Counted from the stretch's first letter, positions 7,803 through 31,911 are shown. The stretch is DNA of 32,000 bases from Pseudoalteromonas translucida KMM 520 (GCF_001465295.1 NZ_CP011034.1:1560001-1592000); one strand, 5' to 3'. Numbers and translations: made by a program. The notes: generated by a model from the sequence alone, not told the origin.

Positions 7803-8803
7803 TTAACGTAGCAATTAATGGCTATGGCCGTATAGGTCGCAATGTATTGCGTGCACTTTACGAGTCGGCACAAAATAATGAGATTAAAATTGTTGCAATT
7901 AACGATTTAGCCCCAGCTAATGTTAATGCTCATCTTACGCAATTTGACTCAGTACATGGACAATTTTCTCATAAAGTAACGCTAGCCGATAACACTATGC
8001 TAATTGGCGACGATGTTATTACTTTAACGCAAGAGCGCGACCCAGCAAATTTACCGTGGAAAGCACTCGATGTTGATATTGTTTTAGAGTGTACCGGTTT
8101 GTTTACTACGCGCGAAGCAGCCGCTAAGCATATTACTGCTGGCGCTAAAAAAGTAATTGTTTCGGCGCCGGGCAAAGATATGGATGCAACCGTAGTGCAT
8201 GGCGTTAACAGCGAAGTACTTAATGCACAAAGCCAAATTATTTCAAACGCTTCGTGTACTACTAACTGTTTAGCACCGATTGCTAAAGCAATTAACGACA
8301 CGGTAGGCATTGAGCAAGGTAGCATGACCACTATTCATGCATATACCAACGATCAAAACTTATCGGATGTATATCATCCTGATCTATACCGTGCACGTAG
8401 TGCAACGCAGTCGATGATCCCAACTAAAACCGGTGCAGCTGCAGCTGTTGGTTTAGTGCTACCAGAACTTGCAGGCAAGTTAGATGGTATGTCGGTACGT
8501 GTGCCTACAATTAACGTATCTTTGGTTGATTTTACGTTTATTGCTAAGCGCGATACCAGCATTGAAGAAATTAATGCAATTATGAAAGAAGCGTCAACGG
8601 GCTCAATGAAAGACATTTTACAATATAATGAGCTGCCACTTGTTTCTATTGATTTTAACCATAACCCAGCGTCTTGTGTGTTTGATTCAACGCAAACCAG
8701 AGCGAATGGTAAATTGGTTAAAGTAATGGCTTGGTACGATAACGAATGGGGTTTTTCAAACCGCATGTTAGATCAAGTTAAAGCGTTAGGTAAGTTTTTT
8801 TAA
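7799..8803 (+). CDS. gap: glyceraldehyde-3-phosphate dehydrogenase
   Basis: [14 protein letters not shown] (NAD binding), [12 protein letters not shown] (catalytic Cys) and [11 protein letters not shown]. Its start overlaps the eda stop (ATGA), which indicates translational coupling. Confidence 0.92.
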
Positions 8804-8831
8804 TCTGTGAGTAAATAACATTATTTACGTT

Positions 8832-8858
8832 AAAAACCACGCATTGCGTGGTTTTTTT
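8832..8858. terminator. bidirectional Rho-independent terminator between convergent gap and the LRR-kinase gene
   Basis: AAAAA-CCACGC-ATT-GCGTGG-TTTTTTT. The A-tract and T-tract flank a GC-rich stem. Confidence 0.75.
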
Positions 8859-8883
8859 GTGCCATTTATAAATTTACGACGTT

Positions 8884-10170
8884 TTATAACTGTGTAGTTA
8901 GCTGTGTGCTTAACTGCGAAAGTGTGGGGCGCTGTATAATATCAGTTGTCATGCATTGCTTAGCTAGTTGCGCAAGCTTCACGGCTATTGCATTATTGTC
9001 GCTGCAAACACTCAGTAAATCATCAATTAAACAACCTAGCGCGCGTACTTCAATTAATTGCATTTGCTGGCGCTGATATTCACTCAACATAGCTAAATTA
9101 GTTGCTGCACCAAAATCGCCAAATAACACATTTGCGTCTTGGTTTACCATAGTGTTATGCGCATACACATCGCCATGGCTTACTTTATTTGCATGCAAAT
9201 GCTGTAGGGTACTGGCCATTTGTTGCACAATTTTATAAATAGCTTGGCTACTATAATTACAGCCATCTGCGAAGGTGTCGCGAGTGCACGTTTGTAAACT
9301 TGGCGGTAATCCTAAATTGCTAAAGCTATTATCTATTAGCTCCATTACTAAACCAAGTTGCTTGTCTTGCTCTATATAGGCAAGTACCTTAATTAAATTG
9401 GCATGTTCATTTGCCTGTAAGCAGCAATTAACTTCATCAAGCGGATAACCATCGCTGGTTATTGCGCCTTTAAACAACTTAATAGCTACCGCTTTATCTG
9501 CTGCTTTTGCAAGGTGAATAACGCCAGAGGCGCCTTGGCCAATAACCTGCTGTAATGTGTAATCACTAAGTGGCTTATTCTCTAAACTACTTTTGGTTAG
9601 GCACTGCGCTTTATTAAAGGTGTTACCAGCAAAGGCGAGCCAAGTAAGTTTTGGTAATTCAAATAACCAGTTATCTAGGTGCGTTAAGTTATTGGCAGAT
9701 AAGCGCACTAATTCTAAGTTTGTACACTGCTGCATACTGCTTGGCAAAGTGTGTAACCGGTTACCCGCTAAAGCAAGTTTGCGCAGCTGTTTAAGCTCGC
9801 CGAATGACTCGGGTAATTGCTCAATACGGTTGTCGGTTAATATTAACCACTGTGTTGTAAGCGGCAGGCTATGCTGGGCAAACTCACTAATTTGATTGCC
9901 TTTAAAAGCGATCATAATAAGTGCTGGGCATTGCGCTAAAACAGCAGGTATATGCTTAAACTGATTAAACGATAAAAACACCCGTTTAAGGCGGGTTAAA
10001 CTGGCAAACTCTGCGGGTAAATCACTCAGGTTATTATTAGATAAGTCGAGTACTTCTAGGGTGTCGGCAAGGGTAAAAATTTCTTTTGGGAAATCAGTGA
10101 GGTCTTCCACCAATTGTAAGCGGCGAGCGCCACTTAAAGCACCGCTGCGTAGTTGTTCAAGGGTATTCAA
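8884..10170 (-). CDS. leucine-rich-repeat protein fused to a eukaryotic-like protein kinase domain
   Basis: The N-terminal half has about 7 tandem ~23-aa LRRs (LDLSNNNLSDLP..., LTDNRIEQLP..., LAGNRLHTLP..., LSANNLTHL...). The C-terminal half has a G-loop IGQGASGV, VAIK lysine, catalytic loop HGDVYAHN and DFG (FGDFGAAT). No signal peptide or TM segment. Confidence 0.8.
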   Translation of the reverse strand: MNTLEQLRSGALSGARRLQLVEDLTDFPKEIFTLADTLEVLDLSNNNLSDLPAEFASLTRLKRVFLSFNQFKHIPAVLAQCPALIMIAFKGNQISEFAQHSLPLTTQWLILTDNRIEQLPESFGELKQLRKLALAGNRLHTLPSSMQQCTNLELVRLSANNLTHLDNWLFELPKLTWLAFAGNTFNKAQCLTKSSLENKPLSDYTLQQVIGQGASGVIHLAKAADKAVAIKLFKGAITSDGYPLDEVNCCLQANEHANLIKVLAYIEQDKQLGLVMELIDNSFSNLGLPPSLQTCTRDTFADGCNYSSQAIYKIVQQMASTLQHLHANKVSHGDVYAHNTMVNQDANVLFGDFGAATNLAMLSEYQRQQMQLIEVRALGCLIDDLLSVCSDNNAIAVKLAQLAKQCMTTDIIQRPTLSQLSTQLTTQL

Positions 10171-10188
10171 AATTAACTAATCCATTTT

Positions 10189-10222
10189 ACAAAAACAAAA
10201 AGGCCAAACTAAGTTGGCCTTT
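10189..10222 (-). terminator. Rho-independent terminator of the YebC-family gene
   Basis: On the - strand: AAAGGCCAA-CTTAGT-TTGGCCTTT followed by TTGTTTTT. Confidence 0.7.
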
Positions 10223-10244
10223 GATCACGTTTTATTTTTAACGC

Positions 10245-10958
10245 TTAAAACTCTGCGTTGTGGTAAACGTTTTGTACGTCGTCGCAATCTTCTAGCATAG
10301 CTAAAAAGCGCTCCATAACCTCAACATCTTCGCCTTCAATAGGCGCTGCTATTTGTGGTACAAACGAAATTAAATCTTCGTCAAATTCAGTAACGCCCAT
10401 TTCTTCAAGTGCTGTGCGAGTATTGTTGTACTCAGTATGTGGTGCAAATACAGTTACCTTGCCGTTTTCAACTTCTACGTCGGTTACATCAACATCAGCC
10501 ATCATTAGTGCTTCAAGTACTGTTTCGTCGTCATCACCGTCAAATACAAAAATTGCAAGGTGATCAAATAAATGCGAAACCGAGTTCTGTGCACCAATTT
10601 TAGCGTTAGCTTTAGTAAAGCAAACACGTACATCAGCAAAGGTACGTTTATTGTTGTCGGTTAAACAGTCAACAATAATCATACAGTTACCCGGGCCGTA
10701 ACCTTCGTAACGTGTGGCTACGTAGTCTTCACCGCCGCCGCCTTTTGCTTTGTCTATTGCGCGGTCAATAACGTGCGCCGGAACTTGGTCTTTTTTAGCG
10801 CGCTCAATTAAACGACGTAGCGATAAGTTACCGTCTGGATCGGTACCGCCATTTTTAGCACAAATATAAATTTCTTTACCGTACTTAGAATAAACTTTAG
10901 TTTTAGCACCCGCAGTTTTAGCCATTGAATCTTTTTTGTTTTGGTAAGCTCTTCCCAT
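10245..10958 (-). CDS. YebC/PmpR-family protein (YeeN-like)
   Basis: [31 protein letters not shown]..., [23 protein letters not shown] moved the start to the internal ATG at 10958 (the family N-terminus begins MGR...) rather than 11006. Confidence 0.88.
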
Positions 10959-19892: not shown

Positions 19893-20333
19893 ATGACCAG
19901 TTCTTATACAGGTGGCTGCGAACACGTTCATATTAAAGCTAAAGCTGAGCCAATCGATAATCATGTTTGTCACTGTAATGTTTGTAAGGGCGTGACAGGC
20001 CAGCAGAGTACGCATGTGGCGTTCTTCAAATACACAGATCTGTCTGCCGATCACCCTGAAAAAATAAAGCGTCAGCCGTTCAATAAGGACAACCCAGAAG
20101 GACCACTTGAGCTTTGTAGCTGTACTGATTGTGGCGCTGCACTAATGCTTGATGATAAACAGAAACGCATTCGTGTTGCCGTGCCAAATGTTATGGGTTA
20201 CAAAGAAGCAACGTTTCCTAAGGCCACATATCACGCATTCTACGACACATCAAAGGGCTACCCCAAACCATCCGACGGTCGTCCGGTTTATGAAGGGTTG
20301 CGTCCTGAATTCGCTTGGCCTGAACCTGCTTAA
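19893..20333 (+). CDS. GFA-family protein (glutathione-dependent formaldehyde-activating / CENP-V-like Zn-binding fold)
   Basis: Diagnostic Cys clusters CHCNVCKGVTG and CSCTDCGAAL. AAAGGAAAGAG RBS upstream of the ATG. Confidence 0.75.
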   Translation: MTSSYTGGCEHVHIKAKAEPIDNHVCHCNVCKGVTGQQSTHVAFFKYTDLSADHPEKIKRQPFNKDNPEGPLELCSCTDCGAALMLDDKQKRIRVAVPNVMGYKEATFPKATYHAFYDTSKGYPKPSDGRPVYEGLRPEFAWPEPA

Positions 20334-20630
20334 TCGGATGCTTTTATACTCGAACAGGAGAGGTTAACCAATCAACCCTACTATTGACCTTGGCATCATT
20401 ATAGCGAACCGTATAACAATTTCACGGCTTGGTATTACAGTTTTCGATACATGAAGGTAGTGGTGCCCGTTTTTTGCAGTAACTGATTTGGTAGGTATTA
20501 CATCAGGGATATACGCGATCTCTTTAAATAACCGAAAAAGGGGGGCCACCCATTAGAAAGTTCCGGTCAAGCAGGCAGCTGCGTTTTCTTGAACTTTTAT
20601 TTAAAAGCTAAGAGTTCTTACTTTTTAAAC

Positions 20631-21063
20631 TCAATTTAAATATGACTGTGCGTTCAGTAATAATAAGTTTTTAGTGGGCTGTTGGACAATATCCATCCGT
20701 TTACGCATTAAGTCACTAACAGCTCTAAGCTTGCGTGGATATATGTAATTTTCAGGGAGTATATTTAAGCGTAACATTTCACCCAACCAGCGGACATCAC
20801 TATGATCGTCAGCATGTTTTAAGCCTGAATATTGTTGGATTGCAGCGAGATTCGCTAAATATATTTTAAACTTTGCATCCATTAATGCATCAACGAGCCT
20901 ATACCAATTAAATGTTGATTCAACAACAATTTCTGTTAGCTTGTCTTTATAGGGGATAAAAAAGACAAAATGACAGACACGTCATTATTTAAACGCGTTG
21001 CTCATTAATGATAGCAATAACATTATTATTTGAATGTAAGTCAATTCCACCATATAGCTTCAT
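20631..21063 (-). pseudogene. IS110-family transposase remnant (N-terminal DEDD/RuvC-like domain only, frameshifted and truncated)
   Basis: The - strand ATG at 21063 reads MKLYGGIDLHSNNNVIAIINEQRV then a stop. A shifted frame resumes PYKDKLTEIVVESTFNWYRLVDALMDAKFKIYLANLAAIQQYSGLKHADDHSD...LRLNILPENYIYP. The gene ends after about 140 of the expected ~340 aa. Confidence 0.75.
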
Positions 21064-21869
21064 ACTAAGCTCCTCGATATACTGTTTATGTTTTGCTCAA
21101 CACAACTGTATTGAAAAACACTAGGAGCTTTCTATATGGTTATAAATATTTAACTTTTGTAAATTAGAGTGTTGAAAGCACACAGACTTTATCTTATCTA
21201 TGAGAAACGTTTAAGGCAGCGAACTCTAATAGCGCATTTTACATTCCTACTCTTATTGGTCAAAAATTAAAATGTCAGAGAGCGTTTTAGATTGGAATAC
21301 ATCAATAAATGAGATCAAGATATAGAAACGGTGCTTTGGGCATCTAGGCTTAATTATAAAATTAGATCAAGTATTATGGGTTGCATCTCATCTGGAGTTC
21401 ATAAATGAAAAGCAGACACCGCGACCTGGATGTGTAGTTTTTGAAGATGATAGTTTATTGGCTGTCACAGCACTAGACGGAATAGTCTGTATACATAAGC
21501 GCTCAATGTTCTCTTTGCCTGTATAATAGAAACTAAGAAACGAGAGATTTGCTAGAGTGAAACTTTGTTATATTGGAACTCGGTCATAATTTTTGTGTTA
21601 AGCTAAAAATTAAATATCTAAAACACAGTCTAATTACTCTTCAAAATAGATGATTAACCGCGTCAATGTCTGGAACCAATTATGTATAGGCATTGTCTAG
21701 TTTTTTGTAGCCTTTAATATATTATTATAAAATTTTAGCAGGTTGTTTTCATTTGGAAACCCGCCCGCCTTTGGTTTTTGTTAATTTTCGAAATTTTCAG
21801 GGCTTAGGTTCAATCGCTTCATAAACATCCTTTAAATTTACACACCGCGATTATCTGAATCGTTTAAAT

Positions 21870-21898
21870 GTAGGTCGGATAAGCGAAGCGCCATCCGA
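21870..21898 (-). repeat. REP element C (same type and orientation as B)
   Basis: GTAGGTCGGATAAGCGAAGCGCCATCCGA, 29/29 identical to B. The similarity extends 13 nt upstream (GAATNNTTTAAAN). Confidence 0.85.
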
Positions 21899-21945
21899 AG
21901 AGCCAAGTTAAGGTTATAAACTCTTACCGTACCCATAAATTATGT

Positions 21946-21981
21946 GTCGGATGGCGTGGCTTCGTCACTTATCCGACCTGC
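21946..21981 (+). repeat. REP element D (same type and orientation as A)
   Basis: GTCGGATGGCGTGGCTTCGTCACTTATCCGACCTGC, with one change (CTGC for CTAC). It is separated from C by 47 nt, the same spacer length as A-B. Confidence 0.85.
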
Positions 21982-22075
21982 ATCAATAATTTTCATCTTC
22001 ACGCTAAAAATATCTCGTTTGTTAGTTTATCAAAAAGGCCTTATAAAGCAGATGTGGTTTAGGATTACCTAAACT

Positions 22076-22140
22076 AAAGCACCCATCTTATTAAGTGACA
22101 CGCGCAATGCACCACTTAGTACGATGGGTGTTTCTATTTT
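22076..22140 (+). terminator. large compound hairpin with T-rich tail (insulating terminator or leader structure)
   Basis: Outer stem CACCCATC (22080..22087) / GATGGGTG (22123..22130), extendable to 11 bp. Inner stem TAAGTG / CACTTA. Followed by TTTCTATTTTT. Confidence 0.4.
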
Positions 22141-22142
22141 TA

Positions 22143-22179
22143 ATGCTTAATTATAAAAAATTAAGCATGCTTTTATAAT
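22143..22179 (+). promoter_or_regulatory. 10-bp inverted repeat ATGCTTAATT-N6-AATTAAGCAT followed by a perfect TATAAT
   Basis: IR arms at 22143..22152 and 22159..22168. TATAAT at 22174..22179, 22 nt upstream of the GTG start at 22201. The IR covers the expected -35/spacer. AGGA RBS at 22191. Confidence 0.35.
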
Positions 22180-22200
22180 TAGACTTAACTAGGAAAAGTC

Positions 22201-23595
22201 GTGTTTAAAACCTTAATTGTGGTTGATAACAACGAGCAAACTCTTGCTCAATCATTCGAAAATGTTATTACGTTTAATACTTACCTACGTGACTATCCAA
22301 AACGTGATGAGCCTAAAACTCGCATTATTAACTTATGTGACTCAAGCCAATACTTGAGCAAAGGTTACTATTGCTCGCTACTCGCTGAGGCGCGTAAGCA
22401 CCAAGTATTACCAAGTGTAAAAACAATAAATGCGCTACGTAGCGGCCAAGCACCTATGCACAATGTTGGCCAAATAGATGGCGCTCTATACTTTGGTAAT
22501 GCCACTAACGATGAGCAAACAAAAGCGGCTAAATCGGTATTTAAACAATACCCAGCGCCTATTTTATTTGTTGATAACCAAGGCTTATTACAACAAGGGT
22601 CGCTATCGTCATTAGATGAGCAACAGTACAGCGATTTTGTAGCTAAGTTGAATAACTTTACCCAAACGCAATGGCGTATTACTGCAGAGCGACGTCGTTT
22701 TCGATGGGATATGGCAATACTTGTTGATCACAATGAAAAGGTGCCACCAAGTGATAAAGACGCAATAGCAAAGTTTATTAAAGCAGCGGCTAAACATGGT
22801 ATTAATGCCCAAGCATTAAGCTTTGACGAAATAGATAATATAGCCCAGTTTGATGCGTTATTTATTCGTCAAACTACAGCAATTGATCATCCAACATATC
22901 GCCTTGCTAGCAAAGCACAAAGCTTAGGCTTAGTGGTTATTGACGATGCGGAGTCTATTTTACGTTGTTGTAATAAAGTGTATTTACACGATGCGTTTAA
23001 CTATCAAAAAGTACCAAGTTTAAAAACAGTGGTTGTGGCTGATCAGTCAAGCGACACCCTTGAGCAGTTAGAAGTCGCGTTTACCTACCCGTTAGTATTG
23101 AAAATGCCAGAAGGCTCGTTTTCAAAAGGGGTATATAAAGTAACAAACCGTGCTGAGCTGGAAGCTAAGTTAACTGAGCTATTTGAATTTAGCGCTTTAG
23201 TACTTGCACAAGAGTATATGTACACCGAATACGATTGGCGAGTAGGGGTATTAAATGGCCGTGCAATTTACGCGTGTCGTTACTTAATGGCGCGTAACCA
23301 TTGGCAAATTTATAACCACGATGCAAAACGATTTTTTTCGGGTGGCTTTGAAACATTGCCTACATTCGAATTACCAAAAGCGGTATTAGATGCAGCATTA
23401 AAAGCATGCAAAACAGTGGGTAAGGGTTTATATGGCGTTGATGTAAAAGAACATCAAGGGCGTGCTTACGTACTTGAAGTAAACGATAACCCTAGTATTG
23501 ATCATAAAGTAGAAGACGGCTATTTAGGCGACGAGCTTTATATGATCATTATGGATGAATTTAAACAACGCCTTGAAGCGAGGGGTCGTGGTTAA
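22201..23595 (+). CDS. RimK-type ATP-grasp amide ligase with N-terminal RLAN-like domain (464 aa)
   Basis: The C-terminal ~290 aa are RimK/ATP-grasp-like (YPLVLKMPEGSFSKGVYKV, LVLAQEYMYTEYDWRVGVLNG, GLYGVDVKEHQGRAYVLEVNDNPSID). They are preceded by a ~150-aa non-catalytic domain, as in RLAN-RimK proteins. GTG start. Confidence 0.85.
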   Translation: MFKTLIVVDNNEQTLAQSFENVITFNTYLRDYPKRDEPKTRIINLCDSSQYLSKGYYCSLLAEARKHQVLPSVKTINALRSGQAPMHNVGQIDGALYFGNATNDEQTKAAKSVFKQYPAPILFVDNQGLLQQGSLSSLDEQQYSDFVAKLNNFTQTQWRITAERRRFRWDMAILVDHNEKVPPSDKDAIAKFIKAAAKHGINAQALSFDEIDNIAQFDALFIRQTTAIDHPTYRLASKAQSLGLVVIDDAESILRCCNKVYLHDAFNYQKVPSLKTVVVADQSSDTLEQLEVAFTYPLVLKMPEGSFSKGVYKVTNRAELEAKLTELFEFSALVLAQEYMYTEYDWRVGVLNGRAIYACRYLMARNHWQIYNHDAKRFFSGGFETLPTFELPKAVLDAALKACKTVGKGLYGVDVKEHQGRAYVLEVNDNPSIDHKVEDGYLGDELYMIIMDEFKQRLEARGRG

Positions 23596-24752
23596 TGGCA
23601 AAAGCCATGGTTGAGAGTGTGGTTAATGAACAGGTTGAGCAAGTGGTTATTCGCCAAGCGCTTATCAGTGATTTAACTGCGCTCACTGCACTTGAAAATG
23701 CCTGCTTCAGTAACGACAAGCTTAGCCCGCGCAGTTTAAAGCGCTGGCTAAGTGCTAAGCACGGTATTTTATTAGTTGCCGAGCAAAATAATGCGTTATG
23801 CGGTTATGGCCTAATTTGGTGCCATAAAGGCACTCGCTTAGCGCGTCTTTATTCGCTTGCGGTGTTACCTACCATGCAAGGCAAAGGCATTGCTAAAATG
23901 CTACTTACAGCACTTGAAAAAGCCACCGCAGAGCGTGGGCGAATTTACCTGCGTTTAGAAGTCGCAGTAAATAACGACAGCGCAATTGGTTTGTATAAAA
24001 GCTTAGGTTATCGAGTGTTTGGTCAGTATAGCGATTATTACGACGATCACAGCGATGCGCTACGGATGCAAAAAAACATTCGTAAAACCAGTGAGCTGAA
24101 GTTAGCACGGTTAACACCCTGGTATCAGCAAACTACTGAGTTTACCTGTGGTCCTGCGGCGTTGCTAATGGCAATGGGGAGCTTAGATGCTAGCACTGAG
24201 CTGACTCAATCGCATGAGTTGTCGTTATGGCGAGAGGGCACTACTATTTTTATGACCTCAGGGCATGGCGGCTGTCATCCATTTGGTTTAGCACTGGCGG
24301 CACATAAACGTGGTTTTAACAGCGAGGTAATTGTTAATACCCTAGAGCCGTTGTTTTTAGATGGCGTGCGCAGTGAAAATAAAAAAGTAGTATTAGCAAC
24401 GGTACATCAGCAGTTTGTAAATGGCATAACCGCTGCCAATATACCGCTTAGTAATAAAGATGTTGAGCTTGAAGACATTGAGCGTTGGCTGAAGCAAAAT
24501 TTTAGCGTGTTGCTCTTAATCAGTACTTATCGGTTTGATGGTAAAAAATCGCCGCATTGGGTGTGCGTTACGCATTTAGATGAGCACTGTGTGTATGTTC
24601 ATGACCCGTTTTGTGAGCCAGGAAGTGATAGTCAATTGGCTATAGATTGCCAATATGTGCCTATTGCTCGCAGCGACTTTAGTAAAATGTCGGCGTTTGG
24701 TAGCCAACGCTTAAGAACAGCAGTGGCTATTGCTAAATCAAAAGATTGTTAA
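23595..24752 (+). CDS. GNAT N-acetyltransferase fused to a papain-like (peptidase C39-like) domain (385 aa)
   Basis: GNAT motif A: LAVLPTMQGKGIAKMLL...YLRLEV..N..AIGLYKSLGY. The C-terminal half carries a Cys/His/Asp set (EFTCGPAALLMAMG, SPHWVCVTH, VHDP). The start shares the A of the upstream TAA (TAATG), indicating coupling. Confidence 0.8.
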   Translation: MAKAMVESVVNEQVEQVVIRQALISDLTALTALENACFSNDKLSPRSLKRWLSAKHGILLVAEQNNALCGYGLIWCHKGTRLARLYSLAVLPTMQGKGIAKMLLTALEKATAERGRIYLRLEVAVNNDSAIGLYKSLGYRVFGQYSDYYDDHSDALRMQKNIRKTSELKLARLTPWYQQTTEFTCGPAALLMAMGSLDASTELTQSHELSLWREGTTIFMTSGHGGCHPFGLALAAHKRGFNSEVIVNTLEPLFLDGVRSENKKVVLATVHQQFVNGITAANIPLSNKDVELEDIERWLKQNFSVLLLISTYRFDGKKSPHWVCVTHLDEHCVYVHDPFCEPGSDSQLAIDCQYVPIARSDFSKMSAFGSQRLRTAVAIAKSKDC

Positions 24753-24794
24753 TATAAAATAAAATTATTCATATATGAATAACGAGGAAATTAC

Positions 24795-25310
24795 GTGTTT
24801 TTACCTGATTTATTTGATGTAGCTCCGTACTCATGGGCTGCAATTGGTACGGCGGCATTTTGTGGCGCTATTATTGGTATTGAGCGCCAATTACGTGGCA
24901 AACCTGTGGGTATTCGTACTTCTGCGTTAATTACTTTAGGTACCTATTTATTTTTATCGACTGCGTTTAATTTACAAGGCGATGTAATTGACCACTCTCG
25001 CGTAGTGGGGCAAATAATTACTGGTATTGGTTTTTTGGGCGCAGGCGTAATGCTAGCTAAAGACGGCGCAGTGGTAGGAGTAACATCGGCAGCAACCATT
25101 TGGGTGTTGGCATCTATTGGTGTAATGATAGCCACCGAAAACTTGGGCGCAGCTATTAAGCTTTCTGTGCTGGTGGTCGGTATTTTATACGGTGTTGATG
25201 TGCTTGAAGCTAAGTTTAAAAGCTTAAGTAAAGGCGTGCACACTAAAGTTAAAATTTATTCAAAACGCTATTATCGCAAAAGCGAAAATGAAACAGAGCG
25301 CCACTTATAA
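24795..25310 (+). CDS. MgtC/SapB-family membrane protein (N-terminal membrane domain type, 171 aa)
   Basis: GIERQLRGKPVGIRT and ITGIGFLGAGVM motifs. GTG start with a GAGGA RBS. It begins 42 nt after the GNAT-peptidase gene and is followed by a terminator. Confidence 0.8.
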   Translation: MFLPDLFDVAPYSWAAIGTAAFCGAIIGIERQLRGKPVGIRTSALITLGTYLFLSTAFNLQGDVIDHSRVVGQIITGIGFLGAGVMLAKDGAVVGVTSAATIWVLASIGVMIATENLGAAIKLSVLVVGILYGVDVLEAKFKSLSKGVHTKVKIYSKRYYRKSENETERHL

Positions 25311-25323
25311 AGTGGCGTTTTTA
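25299..25323 (+). terminator. Rho-independent terminator closing the three-gene operon
   Basis: CGCCACTT-ATA-AAGTGGCG followed by TTTTTAT. It overlaps the stop codon and may also serve the convergent EAL gene. Confidence 0.7.
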
Positions 25324-25338
25324 TAATTAAGTTTATAA

Positions 25339-26574
25339 CTAACTTAAAACTAATTTTTGATGCACTAAAGCATCGCAAAGTGCTTGTGGGCGGCCTAAAT
25401 AATAGCCCTGAACCTTGTCGACATTTAGTGTGCGTAGGGTGTTTATTTCTTCTAGTGTTTCTATGCCTTCGGCAATAATATTACAGCCAATATCTTTAGC
25501 AAATCCGCATAATGCTTTAGCTAATAAATATTTTCGACGATCGCTATTAATGTTTCGGGTAAGGCTAATATCAAGTTTAATAATATCTGCTTGTAGCTCC
25601 AAAATATGCTGAAAAGAAGAATACCCCGCACCAACATCATCTATAGCTAAGCGTATGCCTTTTTTACGCAGCGGCGCGAGTGCCGTTAACATTTCATGGT
25701 AGTTGGCAATAGGAGAGTGTTCGGTTATCTCCAGTACTATATTACTGCAATCAGAAATAGCAGCTAATGCATTAGCAACGGCACCACTTAGTATATGCTC
25801 TGGTGAGGTGTTAATTGACACATACACATCTTTATTAAAATGACTCATATTGCCTAAAACATTGTTAATTGCCAACATTTCTAGGGCTTCACCTAAACCA
25901 AACTGTGCAGCTTCATCAAACCAAATGTTAGGTGTTCTGTAGGGCTCAACAAAAAAGCGAGACAAGGATTCGTAACCCGAAATTTTATTTGTGCTTAAGC
26001 TATATATAGGCTGGTAGTAAATTTCAATATTGTTTGTGTTTATAATATTAAGTACGTTAGATTTAATACGTTGCTTTGCTTCGTTGTTTTGTATTTGCGT
26101 ATCAATAAGCTGCGAAGCCAGATCTGAAATTAAATTTAAAAATGCCAGATCACGTTTGTTTAATGTGTCGTCTTTTTGTTCGTTGTAGCAACAAAATGTG
26201 CCGTAAATATCGCCGTTGGATAAGGTAATTGGCACCCCAATATAAGCACCAATATTAAGCTTTTTAGTAACCGGCATATCGCGGGTTATACTATTTTTAC
26301 TGGTGTCAGGTATTATATTATCTAGTTCATTATTGGCTAATTTATTACAGTAGGTTTCATTTATGGGATCAAAATTACCTACTTTTACAATATCGTTAGG
26401 GCGTTTGGTATCAACTAATTTAAATATACGTTTAGAGTCTGTAAACTCAGAAATAAAAGCAACGTCCATATCAAGGTGCTTACGAATAAGTGCTAGCAAC
26501 CGAGTTAGTCTAGTGTTGAGATCAGTCTCTGTTTCAAGATCTAATAGTAAATTTTCACTAAAATTTACATGCAT
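25339..26574 (-). CDS. GAF-domain / EAL-domain protein (probable c-di-GMP phosphodiesterase)
   Basis: The N-terminal ~160 aa are GAF-like. The EAL domain has ESLSR (EAL-motif variant), INTS, LEITE, AIDDVGAGYSS, IKLD, IAEGIET and VQGYYLGRP, so the catalytic residue set appears complete. Confidence 0.8.
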   Translation of the reverse strand: MHVNFSENLLLDLETETDLNTRLTRLLALIRKHLDMDVAFISEFTDSKRIFKLVDTKRPNDIVKVGNFDPINETYCNKLANNELDNIIPDTSKNSITRDMPVTKKLNIGAYIGVPITLSNGDIYGTFCCYNEQKDDTLNKRDLAFLNLISDLASQLIDTQIQNNEAKQRIKSNVLNIINTNNIEIYYQPIYSLSTNKISGYESLSRFFVEPYRTPNIWFDEAAQFGLGEALEMLAINNVLGNMSHFNKDVYVSINTSPEHILSGAVANALAAISDCSNIVLEITEHSPIANYHEMLTALAPLRKKGIRLAIDDVGAGYSSFQHILELQADIIKLDISLTRNINSDRRKYLLAKALCGFAKDIGCNIIAEGIETLEEINTLRTLNVDKVQGYYLGRPQALCDALVHQKLVLS

Positions 26575-26643: not shown

Positions 26644-27654
26644 TTAGCCAAACAATTTTTTTCTCACTACTTTACGATACTCACTGGGTGTTTGGTTCAG
26701 TATTTTTCTAAATATTCGCGTTAAATGACCTTGATCGTTATAGCCAACTTCTAACGCTACTTCTTGAATTGATAAATTTGACGAAGCGAGCAGCTCTTTT
26801 GCGCCTTCTACTCGTAACTGTTGCCAATACTCAATAGGGCTTTGGTTGGTAGCTGCTTTAAAGCGCCGTGTAAAAGAGCGATAGCTTAAATTAAACTGCG
26901 CGGCCACATCTTGTAAATTAAGCTCTGTTGCTAAGTTGGTTTTTAACCAAAATTGAATTTGGGCAATTAACTCATCGGGATGGCGGTCAACCGCGCCTTC
27001 AAGATAGCGCTGATCTTCGTAGGGTTTGCGTATTTCGTGGGAAAAATTGCGCTCAACATGCTGCGCTGCAGCTTTGCCATAATACTGGCTAATAATATGC
27101 ACCATTACATCGGCTAGGGCGTTTAGGCTGGCTACGGTATAGAGTCGCTCGGATTGAGTAATAAAAAAGTCAGGCTTTAACAGTACCTTGGGGTAGTCAT
27201 GACTAAATTGTTTAGCGTAATGCCAATGAGTAGTTGCAGGGTGCCCGTCAAGTAACCCAGCCTCTGCTAGTAAACAATTGCCAGTGCCTACGCCTATAAT
27301 ATGGCTGCCATTTGTAAAACTTTGCCCCAGCCAAGTAACTATATTTTGATTAGTGCGTACAACTGGGCGCGGGTTTCGCCAAATACCGGGCACTATTACT
27401 AAATCGCAATTGGGGGTATTGCTGGTGGCGCAATCGGGAAGGATTGCCAAGCCGGTACGATTACTTATTGGTTCATGGTTTTTAGCAACTAAATGAATAG
27501 CGAGTGGCCTAAAGTTTTGTTTATTAATATGGCCTTTTGCAAAAGCTTCGCCCGCTCTCAACATTTCTATAGGAAGGGTTAAACTCGTTATTAATAAGTG
27601 TTGGTAAACAGCAATAGCTATATTTAATGGGGGGTTACTCTGTTTATCAGTCAT
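26644..27654 (-). CDS. GlxA-family (DJ-1/PfpI-like domain + AraC HTH) transcriptional regulator
   Basis: N-terminal class-I amidotransferase-like fold (GVGTGNCLLAEAGLLDGHPATTHW). C-terminal AraC HTH pair (FNLSYRSFTRRFKAATNQSPIEYWQQLR..., VALEVGYNDQGHLTRIFRK). Confidence 0.85.
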   Translation of the reverse strand: MTDKQSNPPLNIAIAVYQHLLITSLTLPIEMLRAGEAFAKGHINKQNFRPLAIHLVAKNHEPISNRTGLAILPDCATSNTPNCDLVIVPGIWRNPRPVVRTNQNIVTWLGQSFTNGSHIIGVGTGNCLLAEAGLLDGHPATTHWHYAKQFSHDYPKVLLKPDFFITQSERLYTVASLNALADVMVHIISQYYGKAAAQHVERNFSHEIRKPYEDQRYLEGAVDRHPDELIAQIQFWLKTNLATELNLQDVAAQFNLSYRSFTRRFKAATNQSPIEYWQQLRVEGAKELLASSNLSIQEVALEVGYNDQGHLTRIFRKILNQTPSEYRKVVRKKLFG

Positions 27655-27782
27655 ATAGATGCTCCGACCAGTTAGGGTTGGCCTTTTATGCTTAATATTT
27701 GGCTATTAAAGCACAAAGCGTGGTGCGTAATCCATTTAAACTAGTGTCATATTCTTATAACACGTTTTTTAAAAGGTAAATT

Positions 27783-29690
27783 ATGACCGCATTACCCGTA
27801 ATTGTAGGCATGGGAGGCATTAATGCCGCTGGCCGTACTTCTTTTCACCAAGGTTACCGCCGTATTGTGTTAGACAGTTTAAATGCACAAGCTCGCCAAG
27901 AAACGTTTTTAGGCCTCGCCACCTTAATGAATTTAGTTAGTGTTGTTGATAATCAACTACAAGACACTCAAGGTAACAATGTTGAGCAAAGCGACATAGA
28001 AGCACGTTTTGGTGAACAAATAATTGCCGGTACGCTTATTCGTAAAATTGAAAACGAACATTTTGATCCAGACGCCACACCATGGCAGCAAAAAATGACG
28101 CTTAATGCATCAGCCGAAAACGCTATTGTGTTTGAAACCCGTGCTCGCGATTTACCACAACCGGTACCTGCAAGCTGGCAGGTAGAGCAGCTGGAAGGTA
28201 AAAAAGTTAAAGTTACTATTGCCGCAGATATAGATGTTAAACACGCTTCAACTCGTGACAACCCGATTAAATCGGCAGGGCAGTTTCCTACAGGGTTTGA
28301 TCCGTCAGTAATGTATAACAGCCGCTATCAGCCACGTGGTCTGCAAGCGACTATTTTTGCTGCTACCGATGCAATAAAATCAACCGGGCTTGATTGGCAA
28401 CATATAATGAATAGCGTAGAGCCAGACAAAATTGGTACTTATTCGGCGTCGGTTATTGGCCAAATGGATGACAAAGGTTTAGGCGGCTTAGTTAAAGCTC
28501 GCCAGCAAGGCGACCGCGTAAGCACTAAGCAATTAGCGCTGGGTTTAAATACTATGTCGACCGACTTTATTAATGCGTATGTAACGGGCAACGTAGGTAC
28601 TACGTTTTCAACATCGGGCGCATGTGCTACGTTTTTATATAACTTACGCGCAGCGGTTAACGATATACAAGCAGGGCGCACCCGCGTTGCTGTGGTAGCA
28701 AGTGTTGAATGTGCTATTACGCCAGAGGTTATAGAAGGCTTTGGTAACATGAGCGCACTGGCAAACGTTGAAGGTTTGCGCCGTTTAGATAACCTAAGTA
28801 ATACAGATGAGCCTGACTATCGTAAAAGTAGCCGCCCATTTGGCGAAAACTGTGGCTTTACGTTAGGTGAAGGTGCACAAGTGGCTATTTTAATGGATGA
28901 TGCTCTAGCACTAGAGTTAGGCGCCGACATTATGGGGTGTGTGCCAGATGTATTTGTAAATGCCGACGGCATTAAAAAGTCGATTACCTCACCAGGGCCT
29001 GGTAACTACATTACTATGGCAAAATCGGCGGCACTGGCAAGTAGCTTATTAGGTAAAGAAGCACTGCAACAGCGCAGCTTTATATTAGCCCATGGTTCAA
29101 GCACGCCATTAAACCGTGTAACCGAGTCATTAATTTATCATAAAGTGGCACAAACCTTTGCTATTGATAACTGGAAAGTAACTGCGCCAAAAGCGTATGT
29201 TGGCCATACTATTGCCCCTGCAAGTGGCGATCAGTTAGCTATAGCACTAGGTGTATTTAGCCACAATATTATGCCTGGTATTACGACTATAGATAAAATA
29301 GCCGACGATGTTTACGCTGATCATTTAGACATTAGAAACAGCCACTATGATTGCGGTGATATGGATATTGCATTTATTAACTCAAAAGGCTTTGGCGGTA
29401 ACAACGCTACCGCTACAGTATTGTCTGCAAAAATAACACTGCAAATGCTTGCCAAGCGCCATGGCAAAAGCGTTATGAATGATTATGCTAATAAAAATGT
29501 GGCTGTAAAAGCAGCGCAGCAAAGCTATCAATCACAAGCTGATTTAGGTCAATACCAACTAATTTATCGTTTTGGTGATGGCTTAATCGATGATAACGAC
29601 ATTGTAATAGATGAGCAAAGCATACACCTTCCTGGCTTTGAAAAAGCGATTGCTTTTAATACAAAAAATCCCTATCAAGACATGTTTTAA
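27783..29690 (+). CDS. fabY: FabY-class beta-ketoacyl-ACP synthase (long KAS I/II-like, 635 aa)
   Basis: The N-terminus MTALPVIVGMGGINAAGRTSFHQGYRR...QARQETF and the length match my recollection of P. aeruginosa FabY (PA5174, 634 aa). Cys-His-His triad context: SGACATFLYN, AHGSSTP, YVGHTIAPASG. FINSKGFGGNNA near the C-terminus. Confidence 0.7.
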   Translation: MTALPVIVGMGGINAAGRTSFHQGYRRIVLDSLNAQARQETFLGLATLMNLVSVVDNQLQDTQGNNVEQSDIEARFGEQIIAGTLIRKIENEHFDPDATPWQQKMTLNASAENAIVFETRARDLPQPVPASWQVEQLEGKKVKVTIAADIDVKHASTRDNPIKSAGQFPTGFDPSVMYNSRYQPRGLQATIFAATDAIKSTGLDWQHIMNSVEPDKIGTYSASVIGQMDDKGLGGLVKARQQGDRVSTKQLALGLNTMSTDFINAYVTGNVGTTFSTSGACATFLYNLRAAVNDIQAGRTRVAVVASVECAITPEVIEGFGNMSALANVEGLRRLDNLSNTDEPDYRKSSRPFGENCGFTLGEGAQVAILMDDALALELGADIMGCVPDVFVNADGIKKSITSPGPGNYITMAKSAALASSLLGKEALQQRSFILAHGSSTPLNRVTESLIYHKVAQTFAIDNWKVTAPKAYVGHTIAPASGDQLAIALGVFSHNIMPGITTIDKIADDVYADHLDIRNSHYDCGDMDIAFINSKGFGGNNATATVLSAKITLQMLAKRHGKSVMNDYANKNVAVKAAQQSYQSQADLGQYQLIYRFGDGLIDDNDIVIDEQSIHLPGFEKAIAFNTKNPYQDMF

Positions 29691-29762: not shown

Positions 29763-30179
29763 TTATTTAAACTTTTTAATATAGCGCAATGTTATAAAGT
29801 TAATAATGGCTAGTAAAATAGCTATTTCGTAGCGGCTGTAGGCCACCGCAATACCAATTAAACCCATATTCCAAATGCTCGCCGCGGTGGCGGTACCTGA
29901 GGTAGATTGGTTATTTTTTAAAATTGCGCCACCGCCAATAAAGCCGATACCGGTAATGATCCCCTGCAACATTTTTGATTGTGCTTCAGAGGAGTCAAGT
30001 ACAGACAACGCAATTAACGCATAACCACACGATGCCACCGCTACTAGCGGAAAGGTACGCAGCCCCGCCCCATCTTGGCTGCGCTCTCTGTCGTAGGCCA
30101 TTGGCAAAGCAAGTAAATAAGCTATGCCTAAGTGAATCAGGTTATCAACGATTTCGTGCCACTGTAAATCAATTTCCAT
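29763..30179 (-). CDS. MgtC/SapB-family membrane protein (138 aa), paralogue of 24795..25310
   Basis: ITGIGFIGGGAIL and TATAASIWNMGLIGIAVA parallel ITGIGFLGAGVML and TSAATIWVLASIGVMIA in the first copy. Confidence 0.8.
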   Translation of the reverse strand: MEIDLQWHEIVDNLIHLGIAYLLALPMAYDRERSQDGAGLRTFPLVAVASCGYALIALSVLDSSEAQSKMLQGIITGIGFIGGGAILKNNQSTSGTATAASIWNMGLIGIAVAYSRYEIAILLAIINFITLRYIKKFK

Positions 30180-30282: not shown

Positions 30283-31911
30283 GTGAGGCTTGGTAATAGT
30301 TACACTACTATTTTACTTTTTTACCAAAAAGTTAGTTTGATATCGCTTTTAAATATCCGTATTCTTTTACTTATAGTAAAAGATGATTATGTGAACCACT
30401 TGCCTTTAAACAAAGTAATTAATACAGCCACTAAACTTGAAAAAACCGCGTTACTACTGTGCGTTAGCTTATCAGTTGTGGCATTTTTATTTCCGGCATT
30501 ACTTACGGCTCATTTGCAGCCTGTTATTAGCCAACTTTTAAGCTACTTGGGCTCGCCATTTTTTATTTTGGTTAACCTATTACTCTTTATTGTAATTGCC
30601 GTTGCTATAAGCCCGTTAGGGCGGCGTAAAATAGGTGGAGAGCAAGCAAAGGTTGAATTTGCTTTATTTGGCTGGCTCTCTATGCTTTTTGCTGCAGGTA
30701 TGGGCTCGGGCCTCGTTTTTTGGGGAGTAGCAGAGCCTGCACTACACACTATAAACTCACCTTTAAAACAGGGTTTATACCCTAATCCACACACCAGTGG
30801 CTTGGCATTAACTTTAGTTAATTGGGGGGCGCATGCTTGGGCACTTTACGCGGTATTTGGTTTGGTACTTGGCGGGCTTAGCAGTAATAGCGGCAAAGTA
30901 GGCGATATTAGCGCGCCGGTTATAAGTGTGTTTAAAGGTGTTATAAATAAAGACTGGCAAATTAAGCTGGGCTTTGGCATTAAGTTAATTGCTATATTCT
31001 CGATATTTTTTGGGGTGGTTGGCACTATCGCAAACTCTACTTTATTACTGCGTAAAGGCTTGGCGTTAAAGTTAGGTGTTGAATCGGCTTTGTTGTCGGG
31101 GTTTATAATTATTAGTTTAATTGTAGCTTTATATACGTTATCGGCAACTTTGGGGCTTAAAAAAGGGATTCAAACACTCAGTAAGTTTAATATGCTTTTA
31201 GCATTAGCACTTATGGTTTGGCTGCTGTTTTTTGTGCCTATTGAGCCCATTATAAATATAGCTATTGGTGGCACCTGGGATTATTTACAGCTTATTACTA
31301 TAGGAACATGGCAACTTGCCAGCCAGCTAAACGATCCAAAGTGGGCGAATGGCTGGACCTATAATTATTATTTTTGGTGGTTGGCTTGGGGTCCATTTGT
31401 GGGCGTGTTTTTAGCCAAAATAAGTCAGGGTCGCCCGGTGTGGCAATATATTTTAGGTGTTGTTTTAGTACCTACACTGGTTACTATTGTATGGTTTAGC
31501 GTGTTTTCTGGCTCTGCTATAGCCTGGGATGAAGCGCACCAAAGTGGTATTTTACAGGCAATAAAAGCAGATTATACCCAAGGCTTATTTGTATTTTTTG
31601 AGCAATTAGGTTGCCAAGGTGCCGTACTTATTTGGTCTAGCTTATTACTGTTACTTATTTTTGTAGCAACCTCTGCTGATTCTGCCGTTTTGGTTATACG
31701 CCAATTAAGCGGCGCAAATAAAACATATACTTGGAGTTTATACGCTTGGTCGTTTGCATTGGGATTGTGTGCTTACGTATTATTGGTTCAAAATAACGAG
31801 CCTTTAAACCGCAGTGTTGCGATTATTGGTGCATTACCTTTTTTGATTATATTTTTACTGCAATTAATTGGTTTTGTTAAGGAGTTTATAAAAGAGGAAG
31901 TGCATGAGTAA
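30283..31911 (+). CDS. BCCT-family (betaine/carnitine/choline-type) transporter
   Basis: 12-TM-like profile with the BCCT signature region YYFWWLAWGPFVGVFLAKISQGRPV. The true start is uncertain; an in-frame GTG at 30391 (VNHLPLNK...) is an alternative to the track's GTG at 30283. Confidence 0.82.
   Translation: MRLGNSYTTILLFYQKVSLISLLNIRILLLIVKDDYVNHLPLNKVINTATKLEKTALLLCVSLSVVAFLFPALLTAHLQPVISQLLSYLGSPFFILVNLLLFIVIAVAISPLGRRKIGGEQAKVEFALFGWLSMLFAAGMGSGLVFWGVAEPALHTINSPLKQGLYPNPHTSGLALTLVNWGAHAWALYAVFGLVLGGLSSNSGKVGDISAPVISVFKGVINKDWQIKLGFGIKLIAIFSIFFGVVGTIANSTLLLRKGLALKLGVESALLSGFIIISLIVALYTLSATLGLKKGIQTLSKFNMLLALALMVWLLFFVPIEPIINIAIGGTWDYLQLITIGTWQLASQLNDPKWANGWTYNYYFWWLAWGPFVGVFLAKISQGRPVWQYILGVVLVPTLVTIVWFSVFSGSAIAWDEAHQSGILQAIKADYTQGLFVFFEQLGCQGAVLIWSSLLLLLIFVATSADSAVLVIRQLSGANKTYTWSLYAWSFALGLCAYVLLVQNNEPLNRSVAIIGALPFLIIFLLQLIGFVKEFIKEEVHE

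Follow-up and report, generated by a model that had tools for sequence, protein, structure and literature searches.

The pairing of an ATP-grasp amide ligase with a GNAT acetyltransferase that carries a peptidase domain was reportedly catalogued in 2009 by Iyer, Abhiman, Burroughs and Aravind in their survey of the amidoligases. The operon considered here, at positions 22,201 to 25,310 of a 32,000-nucleotide stretch from Pseudoalteromonas translucida KMM 520 (NZ_CP011034.1:1560001-1592000, the whole of which is called the window), encodes a ligase with an RLAN domain and a RimK-like ATP-grasp module, a GNAT N-acetyltransferase fused to a papain-like cysteine peptidase of the DUF3335 type (the GNAT-peptidase protein), and a short membrane protein of the MgtC family. 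The characterised ligases of the RimK/LysX/MptN/CofF clade, as well as RIMKLA and RIMKLB, join glutamate or alpha-aminoadipate to carboxylates. In a 2023 classification of the papain-like peptidases, which cites the 2009 survey, DUF3335 was described as often fused to GNAT (PMC10318531). Two systems with known products provide precedents for the combination of acetyltransferase and ligase, namely Ngg, in which GNAT and ATP-grasp parts, encoded in an operon with an M42 aminopeptidase, make the osmoprotectant N-acetylglutaminylglutamine amide (NAGGN) (PMC8070244), and the mammalian enzymes NAT8L and RIMKLA/B, which make N-acetylaspartylglutamate (NAAG) (PMC3872778). The gene pair is already present in Pfam, in the names given by the Prokaryotic Genome Annotation Pipeline (PGAP) and in comparative genomics, and the operon is an ordinary member of a known, unsolved kind; its MgtC-linked layout and a clade-specific leader are local features. 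The original prediction, made from the DNA of the window, held that such linkages were known from comparative genomics only, with no product assigned, and no experimental study of the ligase/GNAT/peptidase system was found in the literature searched.

The main outcome of the comparison of loci is that the invariant core of the system consists of the ligase and a RimI-like GNAT, with the papain-like domain being frequent yet dispensable. Two scans were made: one genome per species was searched with the GNAT-peptidase alignment as the query and the best 80 loci were studied, while a reciprocal scan of metagenome contigs with the ligase alignment as the query supplied another 80, for a total of 160. 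A relative of the GNAT-peptidase protein occurs in at least 592 species of the genome collection, and marine Gammaproteobacteria were the source of most of the best-matching 80 loci. The ligase lay within 6 kb of the GNAT-peptidase gene in 65 of the 80 genome loci, with the ligase directly preceding its partner in 44 of the 65, a DUF2817 gene standing between the two in 8, and the genes being convergent in 9 and divergent in 4. From the ligase side, a cognate GNAT adjoined the ligase in 71 of the 80 metagenome loci, fused to the peptidase in 45 and with only the GNAT detected in 26, of which at least 16 are complete genes of about 150 amino acids and not truncations at contig ends. This clustering of ligase and GNAT far exceeds chance, and because the GNAT stands alone, with no peptidase fused to it, in at least 16 loci, the pair is the core and the peptidase is optional. 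The predicted linkage of ligase, GNAT and peptidase therefore recurs across many genera, but the co-conserved trio that had been proposed was borne out for the ligase and the GNAT alone, as MgtC accompanies them in 18/80 genome and 4/80 metagenome loci and the peptidase domain may be missing. The minimal unit is thus narrowed to ligase plus GNAT, and since the papain domain is absent from at least 16 of the 71 ligase-side loci, it is more likely to be a hydrolase of the product than an essential biosynthetic catalyst, and is best viewed as a candidate for the former.

The domain assignments of the original prediction held up in searches with hidden Markov models, where RLAN, the RimK-like ATP-grasp, GNAT, DUF3335 ('Peptidase_C39 like') and MgtC all scored above the Pfam thresholds. 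In the ligase, RLAN (PF14401) reached 99.4 bits (cut-off 25, E 2e-28) and the RimK-like ATP-grasp (PF08443) 30.5 bits (cut-off 21), with Dala_Dala_lig_C also matching. NCBIfam places the protein in the RimK/LysX/MptN/CofF clade, and the nearest structures in the PDB are LysX (3vpd) and RimK (5zct and 4iwx), with E values from 4e-9 to 1e-6. An hhalign comparison with canonical RimK gave a probability of 96.8% at 19% identity, pairing residues 188-457 with residues 14-289 of RimK. The residues for adenosine triphosphate (ATP) and Mg2+, K301, D414, E426 and N428, align to the corresponding RimK positions and do not vary among 31 sequences that range down to 45% identity. The protein is 99% identical to those of P. 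nigrifaciens and Pseudoalteromonas sp. HL-AS2, and relatives 88-99% identical carry the PGAP name 'RimK family protein'. That the ligase might prove to be an orthologue of the S6-modifying RimK had been named as grounds for abandoning the proposal, and this is not the case, because the RimK models scored far below their cut-offs (NF007764, 30.1 bits against 331; TIGR00768, 75.9 against 143.4) and Rimk_N (PF18030) was not detected by Pfam in the ligase. By comparison, the canonical RimK of one of the loci studied (L053) gave 237 bits with PF08443 and 155.7 bits with Rimk_N.

What sets the ligase apart is the RLAN extension that makes up its N-terminal 170-185 residues. A search with RLAN alone in a library of 1.84 billion proteins returned 479 cluster representatives, the full-length ones being 480-530 amino acids long with the same layout of RLAN followed by ATP-grasp. 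Conservation is strongest in the motif R-x-x-NLC-x4-YLS-x-GYYCSLLAEAR, which includes two invariant cysteines. The ligase as a whole is rich in invariant or near-invariant cysteines (C46, C58, C256, C257 and C359, two of them in this motif), and of these C46, C58 and C256 are invariant in the same 31 sequences; they could serve in metal binding, redox sensing or acyl carriage. A metagenomic fragment of 409 amino acids (P0359) has DUF3335 followed by RLAN in one predicted protein, and is either a natural fusion of peptidase and ligase or an artefact of gene calling or assembly.

The second protein matched GNAT (PF00583) with 62 bits (E 8e-17) and DUF3335 (PF11814) with 302.8 bits (E 1.3e-90), the latter over profile positions 1-205 of 206. 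In the GNAT domain, the residues of the acetyl-CoA loop (G96, G98 and A100 in the pattern Q/R-x-x-G-x-G/A) are invariant, and in the peptidase domain Gln179, Cys185, His321 and Asp337 stand in papain order and do not vary among 20 homologues that share 57-85% identity with the window protein, so that the papain-like catalytic set is intact and peptidase activity is predicted. The AlphaFold model of the protein has a mean predicted local distance difference test (pLDDT) score of 77, with low confidence around H321-D337. Its GNAT domain found RimI (5isv) as the best Foldseek match, with a target-normalised template modelling score (TM-score) of 0.86, and such scores run from 0.84 to 0.90 for its superposition on RimI and the N-terminal acetyltransferases Ard1/Naa; the Foldseek search with the whole model returned matches to the GNAT domain only and no neighbours of the papain domain. 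By sequence and predicted fold together, RimI and Ard1/Naa10 are nearest, followed by the acetyltransferases of glutamate analogues PAT, ArsN and YncA. The RimI equivalog models scored below their cut-offs (TIGR01575, 78.4 against 86.4; NF007025, 38.5 against 173), as did the true C39 families (PF03412, 17.1 bits against 22; PF13529, 23.2 against 24). PGAP names relatives of this protein 'GNAT family N-acetyltransferase/peptidase C39 family protein'.

Further enzymes that recur beside the core are of hydrolytic types. A DUF2817 gene was found at 17 genome and 15 metagenome loci, mostly directly 5' of the GNAT gene; its product, which has an HxxE motif, is a zinc hydrolase of M14 type that is weakly similar to AstE/AspA and MpaA, the AstE/AspA score of 19.6 bits being below the threshold of 25. 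A gene for a peptidase of a sequence-divergent, M42-like kind stands 5' of the ligase at 9/80 genome and 3/80 metagenome loci and is absent in the window, the family match of its product being weak (21.2 bits against a cut-off of 23.2) and NCBIfam giving none. With DUF155 and a dienelactone hydrolase, these two make up the four commonest accessory clusters among the genome loci, and the fullest gene set, in L016, runs M42-like, ligase, DUF2817, GNAT-peptidase and DUF155. None of DUF2817, the M42-like protein and MgtC had a significant match among PDB sequences. One locus, L053, has at 8474-10942 a canonical rimK, then an AstE/AspA-family zinc hydrolase and then a DUF785 'Zn_protease', and this operon lies 1.4 kb from a GNAT-peptidase gene that has no RLAN ligase nearby. 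An anti-phage defence role was considered and dropped, as none of the three window proteins matched any PADLOC model.

By analogy with NAGGN and NAAG, the system may build an N-acetylated acidic di- or oligopeptide without the ribosome and break it down again under control, a reading that we prefer tentatively and at somewhat less than an even chance. The ligase, of RimK/LysX type, would form an ATP-driven amide bond between a carboxylate acceptor and an acidic amino acid, L-glutamate being the most probable one. Either before or after ligation, the RimI-like GNAT would acetylate the free alpha-amino group from acetyl-CoA. The papain-like domain fused to the GNAT would then hydrolyse the product, either to trim or to recycle it, and in other genomes the M14-like DUF2817 and M42-like proteins might do likewise, so that the pool could be adjusted quickly. 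MgtC here, and DUF155 elsewhere, would be a membrane partner that moves the compound or couples its level to ion status. What the substrates and the product are, which way the peptidase reaction runs and what MgtC does are all inferred from the domains and their company. The reading follows from the convergence of the ligase clade, an obligate GNAT partner of the type that acts on alpha-amines, and the Ngg and NAAG precedents, and also from the accessory enzymes being of exopeptidase or amidase type with no gene for a protein or peptide substrate travelling along with the system. An N-acetylated acidic peptide was among the models put forward in the original prediction, and it has gained support from the DUF2817 and M42-like accessory genes and from the NAGGN and NAAG precedents, while the chemistry itself is still argued from analogy.

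Several points weigh against this reading. The proposed specificity for glutamate is drawn from analogy at the family level, at 19% identity to RimK, and the AlphaFold model of the ligase, built on an alignment of 11 sequences, has a mean pLDDT of 49 and gives no RLAN fold. The GNAT is closest to protein N-terminal acetyltransferases, for which a protein target fits equally well, and the canonical rimK of L053, which encodes a protein modifier, is found in an operon of like logic with a ligase, an AstE/AspA-like protein and a peptidase. Membership in the Ngg and AsnO families fails: the Ngg model TIGR03103 gave 26.1 bits against a cut-off of 569 and matched the generic GNAT core only, and no AsnO-type amidotransferase was found in or next to the window operon or among the annotated recurrent neighbours, some of the neighbour clusters being unannotated. 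The fusion of a degradative domain to a biosynthetic one would also be unusual. A precedent for a ligase paired with a papain-like amidase is provided by glutathionylspermidine synthetase/amidase.

The same observations can be read in favour of a protein substrate. The ligase would then add glutamate to the C-terminus of a protein encoded elsewhere and the GNAT would acetylate its N-terminus, with the papain-, M14- and M42-like enzymes trimming the modifications as in the tubulin TTLL/CCP cycle and RLAN recruiting the target. The nearest characterised relatives of the ligase, RimK and LysX, do act on the C-termini of proteins (S6 and LysW), the extra N-terminal domain of the ligase could dock a protein, and both the likeness of the GNAT to RimI and Naa10/Ard1 in sequence and fold and the similar layout of the L053 rimK operon would be expected. 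Unlike lysW beside lysX, however, no candidate target gene is conserved beside the system in the 160 loci, none of the three encoded proteins has an acidic C-terminus, and the equivalog models of S6-RimK and RimI fall short of their cut-offs, which leaves modification of a protein tail rather unlikely, though it is the main rival; nor are we aware of any protein-glutamylating ATP-grasp enzyme whose obligate partner is a GNAT. RimK can polymerise poly-alpha-glutamate in vitro, and the family-level data on the ligase would suit an acidic homopolymer (poly-alpha-glutamate or a cyanophycin-like chain) as well as they suit an N-acetylated di- or oligopeptide. The GNAT would cap such a polymer at the N-terminus against aminopeptidases, and the hydrolases would mobilise it as a store of nitrogen or carbon or as a cation buffer. 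A polyanion would fit the link to the MgtC family, and the recurrence of three peptidase types, endo-acting papain-like, carboxypeptidase-like M14 and aminopeptidase-like M42, suits a chain better than a dipeptide; yet most loci have a single hydrolase, or none besides the optional papain domain, and as the sequences give no sign of processivity a homopolymer is unlikely.

The papain-like domain might instead be biosynthetic, a transacylase like CtaG or BtrH that passes on an acyl or peptidyl unit after its activation by the ATP-grasp enzyme, with C46, C58 and C256 of the ligase and its RLAN domain replacing the thiol of a carrier. CtaG was assigned by HHpred to the PF11814/BtrH type and works with an iterative ATP-grasp enzyme (PMC7183216), the three cysteines are invariant, as noted above, and the P0359 fragment joins DUF3335 and RLAN in one open reading frame (ORF), though this fusion could be an artefact of assembly or gene calling. 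Whereas 95% of CtaD homologues have a carrier protein (PMC7183216), no recurrent carrier-protein gene was found in the 160 loci studied here. The core chemistry must be able to proceed without the papain domain, which is missing altogether from at least 16 loci, and the transacylase is quite improbable. In its most far-reaching form, in which the invariant cysteines of RLAN and the papain domain together make up a thiotemplate free of carrier proteins, the idea is a possibility. Microviridin clusters hold the same three enzyme types, the ATP-grasp enzymes MdnB/C, the GNAT MdnD and a C39-type peptidase on the exporter, which brings to mind a ribosomally synthesised and post-translationally modified peptide (RiPP) of the microviridin or graspetide kind, in which the ATP-grasp enzyme would modify a precursor, the C39-type peptidase cut off the leader and the GNAT acetylate the new N-terminus. 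We find this barely credible, as none of the small ORFs (18-85 amino acids) lying up to 1.5 kb from the genes in the 160 loci shows conservation between genera, no ABC transporter or exporter recurs in these neighbourhoods, PF03412 is below its threshold, and the ligase groups with RimK and LysX, with no graspetide maturase model among the 25 NCBIfam matches listed of 26.

The original prediction of three co-directional ORFs in a tight unit was confirmed (Table 1). The stop codon of the ligase and the start codon of the GNAT-peptidase gene overlap in TAATG at 23593-23597, with the A common to both genes, and the MgtC gene follows after a gap of 42 nucleotides (nt) with its own ribosome-binding site; AGGA at 22191-22194 can be read ahead of the GTG codon of the ligase. 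The hairpin scan found no terminator-like sites on the + strand inside the operon, and at its end a GC-rich hairpin (25298-25318) of 8 pairs, 5 of them G-C, that covers the MgtC stop codon. As this hairpin sits between convergent genes, it could act in both directions. Of the single promoter region and single terminator that had been envisaged, the terminator thus stands as a terminal hairpin, and for the promoter there is a conserved pair of -35- and -10-like elements upstream, with a conserved terminator-like hairpin between this pair and the ligase.

Table 1. Features of the operon and its surroundings; positions are those of the window, except for the two DUF155 genes, which are given with their own loci.
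Feature	Position	Strand	Remarks
GFA-family gene	19893-20333		in extra upstream DNA
ORF of 83 amino acids	20631-20882	-	in extra upstream DNA
Nested REP-like inverted repeat	21868-21983		inner arms 21889-21956; in extra upstream DNA
Promoter-like element	22019-22024 and 22042-22047	+	-35 TTGTTA, 17-nt spacer, -10 TATAAA; from conservation, putative promoter
Leader inverted repeat	22077-22133		
Leader stem-loop	22078-22145	+	two stacked helices with a variable loop, then a U-rich tract; ~55 nt before the ligase start codon
Perfect short palindrome	22143-22168		ATGCTTAATT/AATTAAGCAT
Perfect short palindrome	22148-22181		TAATTATAAAA/TTTTATAATTA
RLAN + RimK-like ATP-grasp amide ligase	22201-23595	+	GTG start, 464 amino acids
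RLAN domain of ligase	22276-22611	+	residues 26-137
RimK-like module of ligase	22762-23571	+	residues 188-457
GNAT N-acetyltransferase fused to DUF3335 papain-like Cys peptidase	23595-24752	+	ATG start, 385 amino acids
GNAT domain	23649-24077	+	residues ~19-161
DUF3335 peptidase region	24114-24731	+	residues 174-379
Intergenic spacer, 42 nt	24753-24794	+	Shine-Dalgarno GAGGA at 24784-24788, 6 nt before GTG; read from sequence
Short MgtC/SapB-family integral membrane protein	24795-25310	+	GTG start, 171 amino acids
Putative intrinsic terminator	25298-25323	+	GCGCCACTT-ATA-AAGTGGCGT then TTTTT; sequence and hairpin scan
GAF-EAL gene	25339-26574	-	c-di-GMP phosphodiesterase-type
AraC/DJ-1-PfpI regulator and ketoacyl-synthase-like protein	26644-29690		regulator on - strand, the other gene (635 amino acids) divergent
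Second MgtC-family gene	29763-30179	-	138 amino acids
BCCT transporter gene	30283-31911	+	
DUF155 gene, L016	7111-7911		
DUF155 gene, L024	7158-7949		

The MgtC-family protein of the operon scored 101.3 bits with PF02308 (cut-off 31.4, E 6e-29) and consists of the membrane domain only, without the C-terminal soluble domain (171 amino acids, compared with about 230 for full-length MgtC). The equivalog of the MgtC of virulence and Mg2+ homeostasis, NF011912, gave 73.1 bits against a cut-off of 255. An MgtC gene stands beside the system in 22 of the 160 loci and in four gene orders: ligase, GNAT-peptidase, MgtC in Pseudoalteromonas; ligase, DUF2817, GNAT-peptidase, MgtC in a metagenome-assembled genome of the Oleiphilaceae; M42-like gene, ligase and MgtC, convergent with the GNAT-peptidase gene, in Neptunomonas (L085); and ligase, stand-alone GNAT, MgtC in L082 and L083, the M42-like gene preceding in L082. 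The MgtC proteins attached to the system in other genera are 58-96% identical to the operon copy, and a second MgtC-family protein of the window is 27% identical to it; the operon-linked proteins form an orthologue group of their own, a lineage separate from the second copy. The gene of this second copy is divergent from that of a BCCT transporter, and both lie about 5 kb from the operon, outside the conserved set and not syntenic beyond close relatives. Their proximity had been taken as an argument for an osmolyte, to which it adds little, as they accompany the system in close relatives only.

In other lineages, a membrane protein of the DUF155 family (RMND1/Sif2-type) is usually found just 3' of the enzyme genes, at 12 genome and 4 metagenome loci. 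One or other of MgtC and DUF155 follows the enzyme genes in 38 of the 160 loci and the two never occur together, and their sharing of the downstream slot suggests the non-homologous replacement of one membrane partner by another. The MgtC link that had been predicted thus looks real yet lineage-limited, MgtC being one of two interchangeable membrane partners. That the ligase and GNAT make a new N-acetylated (oligo)glutamyl compound, and that MgtC or DUF155 is its transporter or a sensor tying this anionic pool to Mg2+ or K+, is, taken as a whole, decidedly unlikely.

Upstream of the operon, TATAAA and its flanking blocks are invariant in an alignment of 11 Pseudoalteromonas loci, while the rest of the intergenic DNA is divergent. 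The leader that follows folds strongly, with a minimum free energy of -50.8 kcal/mol and z = -7.0 relative to shuffled controls, and its consensus fold (RNAalifold, 13 sequences) has 17 pairs, and compensatory double changes are seen at 4 of these. A covariance model (R1) found a single copy on the + strand 5' of the ligase in the window, in L001-L015 and in L081, at 62-85 bits, and nothing significant in the remaining loci of L016-L099 searched; among the loci L001-L099, the element is confined to the MgtC-containing Pseudoalteromonas clade. In outline, it resembles an attenuator of transcription, or else a terminator needing read-through. A known riboswitch class was sought and no Rfam match was obtained at the gathering threshold or at a relaxed E-value. 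A leader peptide was also considered, in the form of a 27-codon ORF with a TTG start over the conserved blocks in one subclade, and was set aside as a shadow of conserved DNA, the window having no start codon for it. Between the leader hairpin and the ligase gene, a stretch (22143-22181) with two short, perfect palindromes is variable or absent in the other species of the upstream alignment; it could be an operator or a strain-specific insertion.

Further upstream, the window strain has about 2.6 kb of extra DNA (19893-21990) relative to sister species, in which a GreA/B-like gene of 158 amino acids stands directly 5' of the operon. The extra DNA contains a GFA-family gene, about 1 kb without ORFs, an ORF whose look of a transposase remnant was judged by eye only, and a nested inverted repeat resembling repetitive extragenic palindromic (REP) elements. 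The GFA-family gene, the transposase-remnant-like ORF and the REP-like palindrome are inserted upstream of the conserved blocks relative to the sister species.

On the other side, a GAF-EAL gene of the cyclic di-GMP (c-di-GMP) phosphodiesterase type lies in convergent orientation to the operon, the terminator being common to the two. A c-di-GMP link like that of Pseudomonas RimA was rejected as a conserved part of the system because this gene occurs only in the window and in L004, and its resemblance to RimA, the EAL protein of the Pseudomonas rimABK operon, is probably a coincidence. Beyond it, an AraC/DJ-1-PfpI regulator and a divergent ketoacyl-synthase-like protein form a pair that is kept across most of the Pseudoalteromonas loci L001-L014 and not in other genera.

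The system is widespread, and the existence of the operon would not surprise a specialist. What is added here is that the papain domain is optional, that DUF2817, M42-like and DUF155 proteins are recurrent partners, and that several lineages have an MgtC orthologue group dedicated to the system. Should the product be an N-acetylated acidic peptide, it would be a new compatible solute or counter-ion for bacterial osmo- and ion-adaptation and would give bacteria a parallel to NAAG metabolism, and should MgtC be a transporter or sensor of the peptide pool, this would be the first defined biochemical partner of the MgtC membrane domain. In any event, the recurrent MgtC orthologue group and the attachment of DUF155 offer an experimental handle on both membrane protein families.

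When the locus is set beside the systems already described, RimK belongs to the same ATP-grasp clade, and the logic of the L053 rimK operon is alike; the window ligase differs in being 19% identical to RimK, in having no Rimk_N, and in its RLAN extension and obligate GNAT partner. In glutathionylspermidine synthetase/amidase, an ATP-dependent ligase is combined with a papain-like (CHAP) amidase that hydrolyses the same product, which results in a switchable pool, but that enzyme carries both activities in one fused protein, belongs to another ligase family, has other substrates and comes without a GNAT. In mammals, an acetyltransferase and a RimK-like glutamate ligase build N-acetyl-Asp-Glu (PMC3872778), and breakdown in N-acetylaspartate (NAA) and NAAG metabolism is by a zinc hydrolase of the AstE/AspA family (aspartoacylase), to which the DUF2817 proteins of window-type systems are weakly similar, below threshold; the mammalian enzymes are eukaryotic and unclustered, and the relation is at the family level only. 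CtaD/CtaG of closthioamide and BtrJ/BtrH of butirosin biosynthesis likewise combine an ATP-grasp ligase with a papain-fold enzyme related to PF11814 (PMC7183216), but they need carrier proteins and a decarboxylase, neither of which is conserved here, and the window-type papain domain is dispensable in part of its family. The NAGGN system, with AsnO, Ngg and the M42 aminopeptidase encoded by PA3459-PA3461 as the reference genes, resembles the present one in combining a GNAT with an ATP-grasp peptide ligase, there for the production of an N-acetyl dipeptide, and in its occurrence in marine and saline bacteria; its operon includes an M42 gene (PMC8070244), where the systems studied here have a weakly matching M42-like gene at a minority of loci and none in the window. 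It differs in that the window GNAT and ligase are separate proteins, the ligase being RimK-like and RLAN-bearing, AsnO is missing, and a papain-like domain and MgtC are added. From the catalogued pair of RLAN-ATP-grasp ligase and GNAT-papain protein (Pfam PF14401 and PF11814) there is no difference in kind, the architectures and the adjacency being identical, and the window operon is a typical member.

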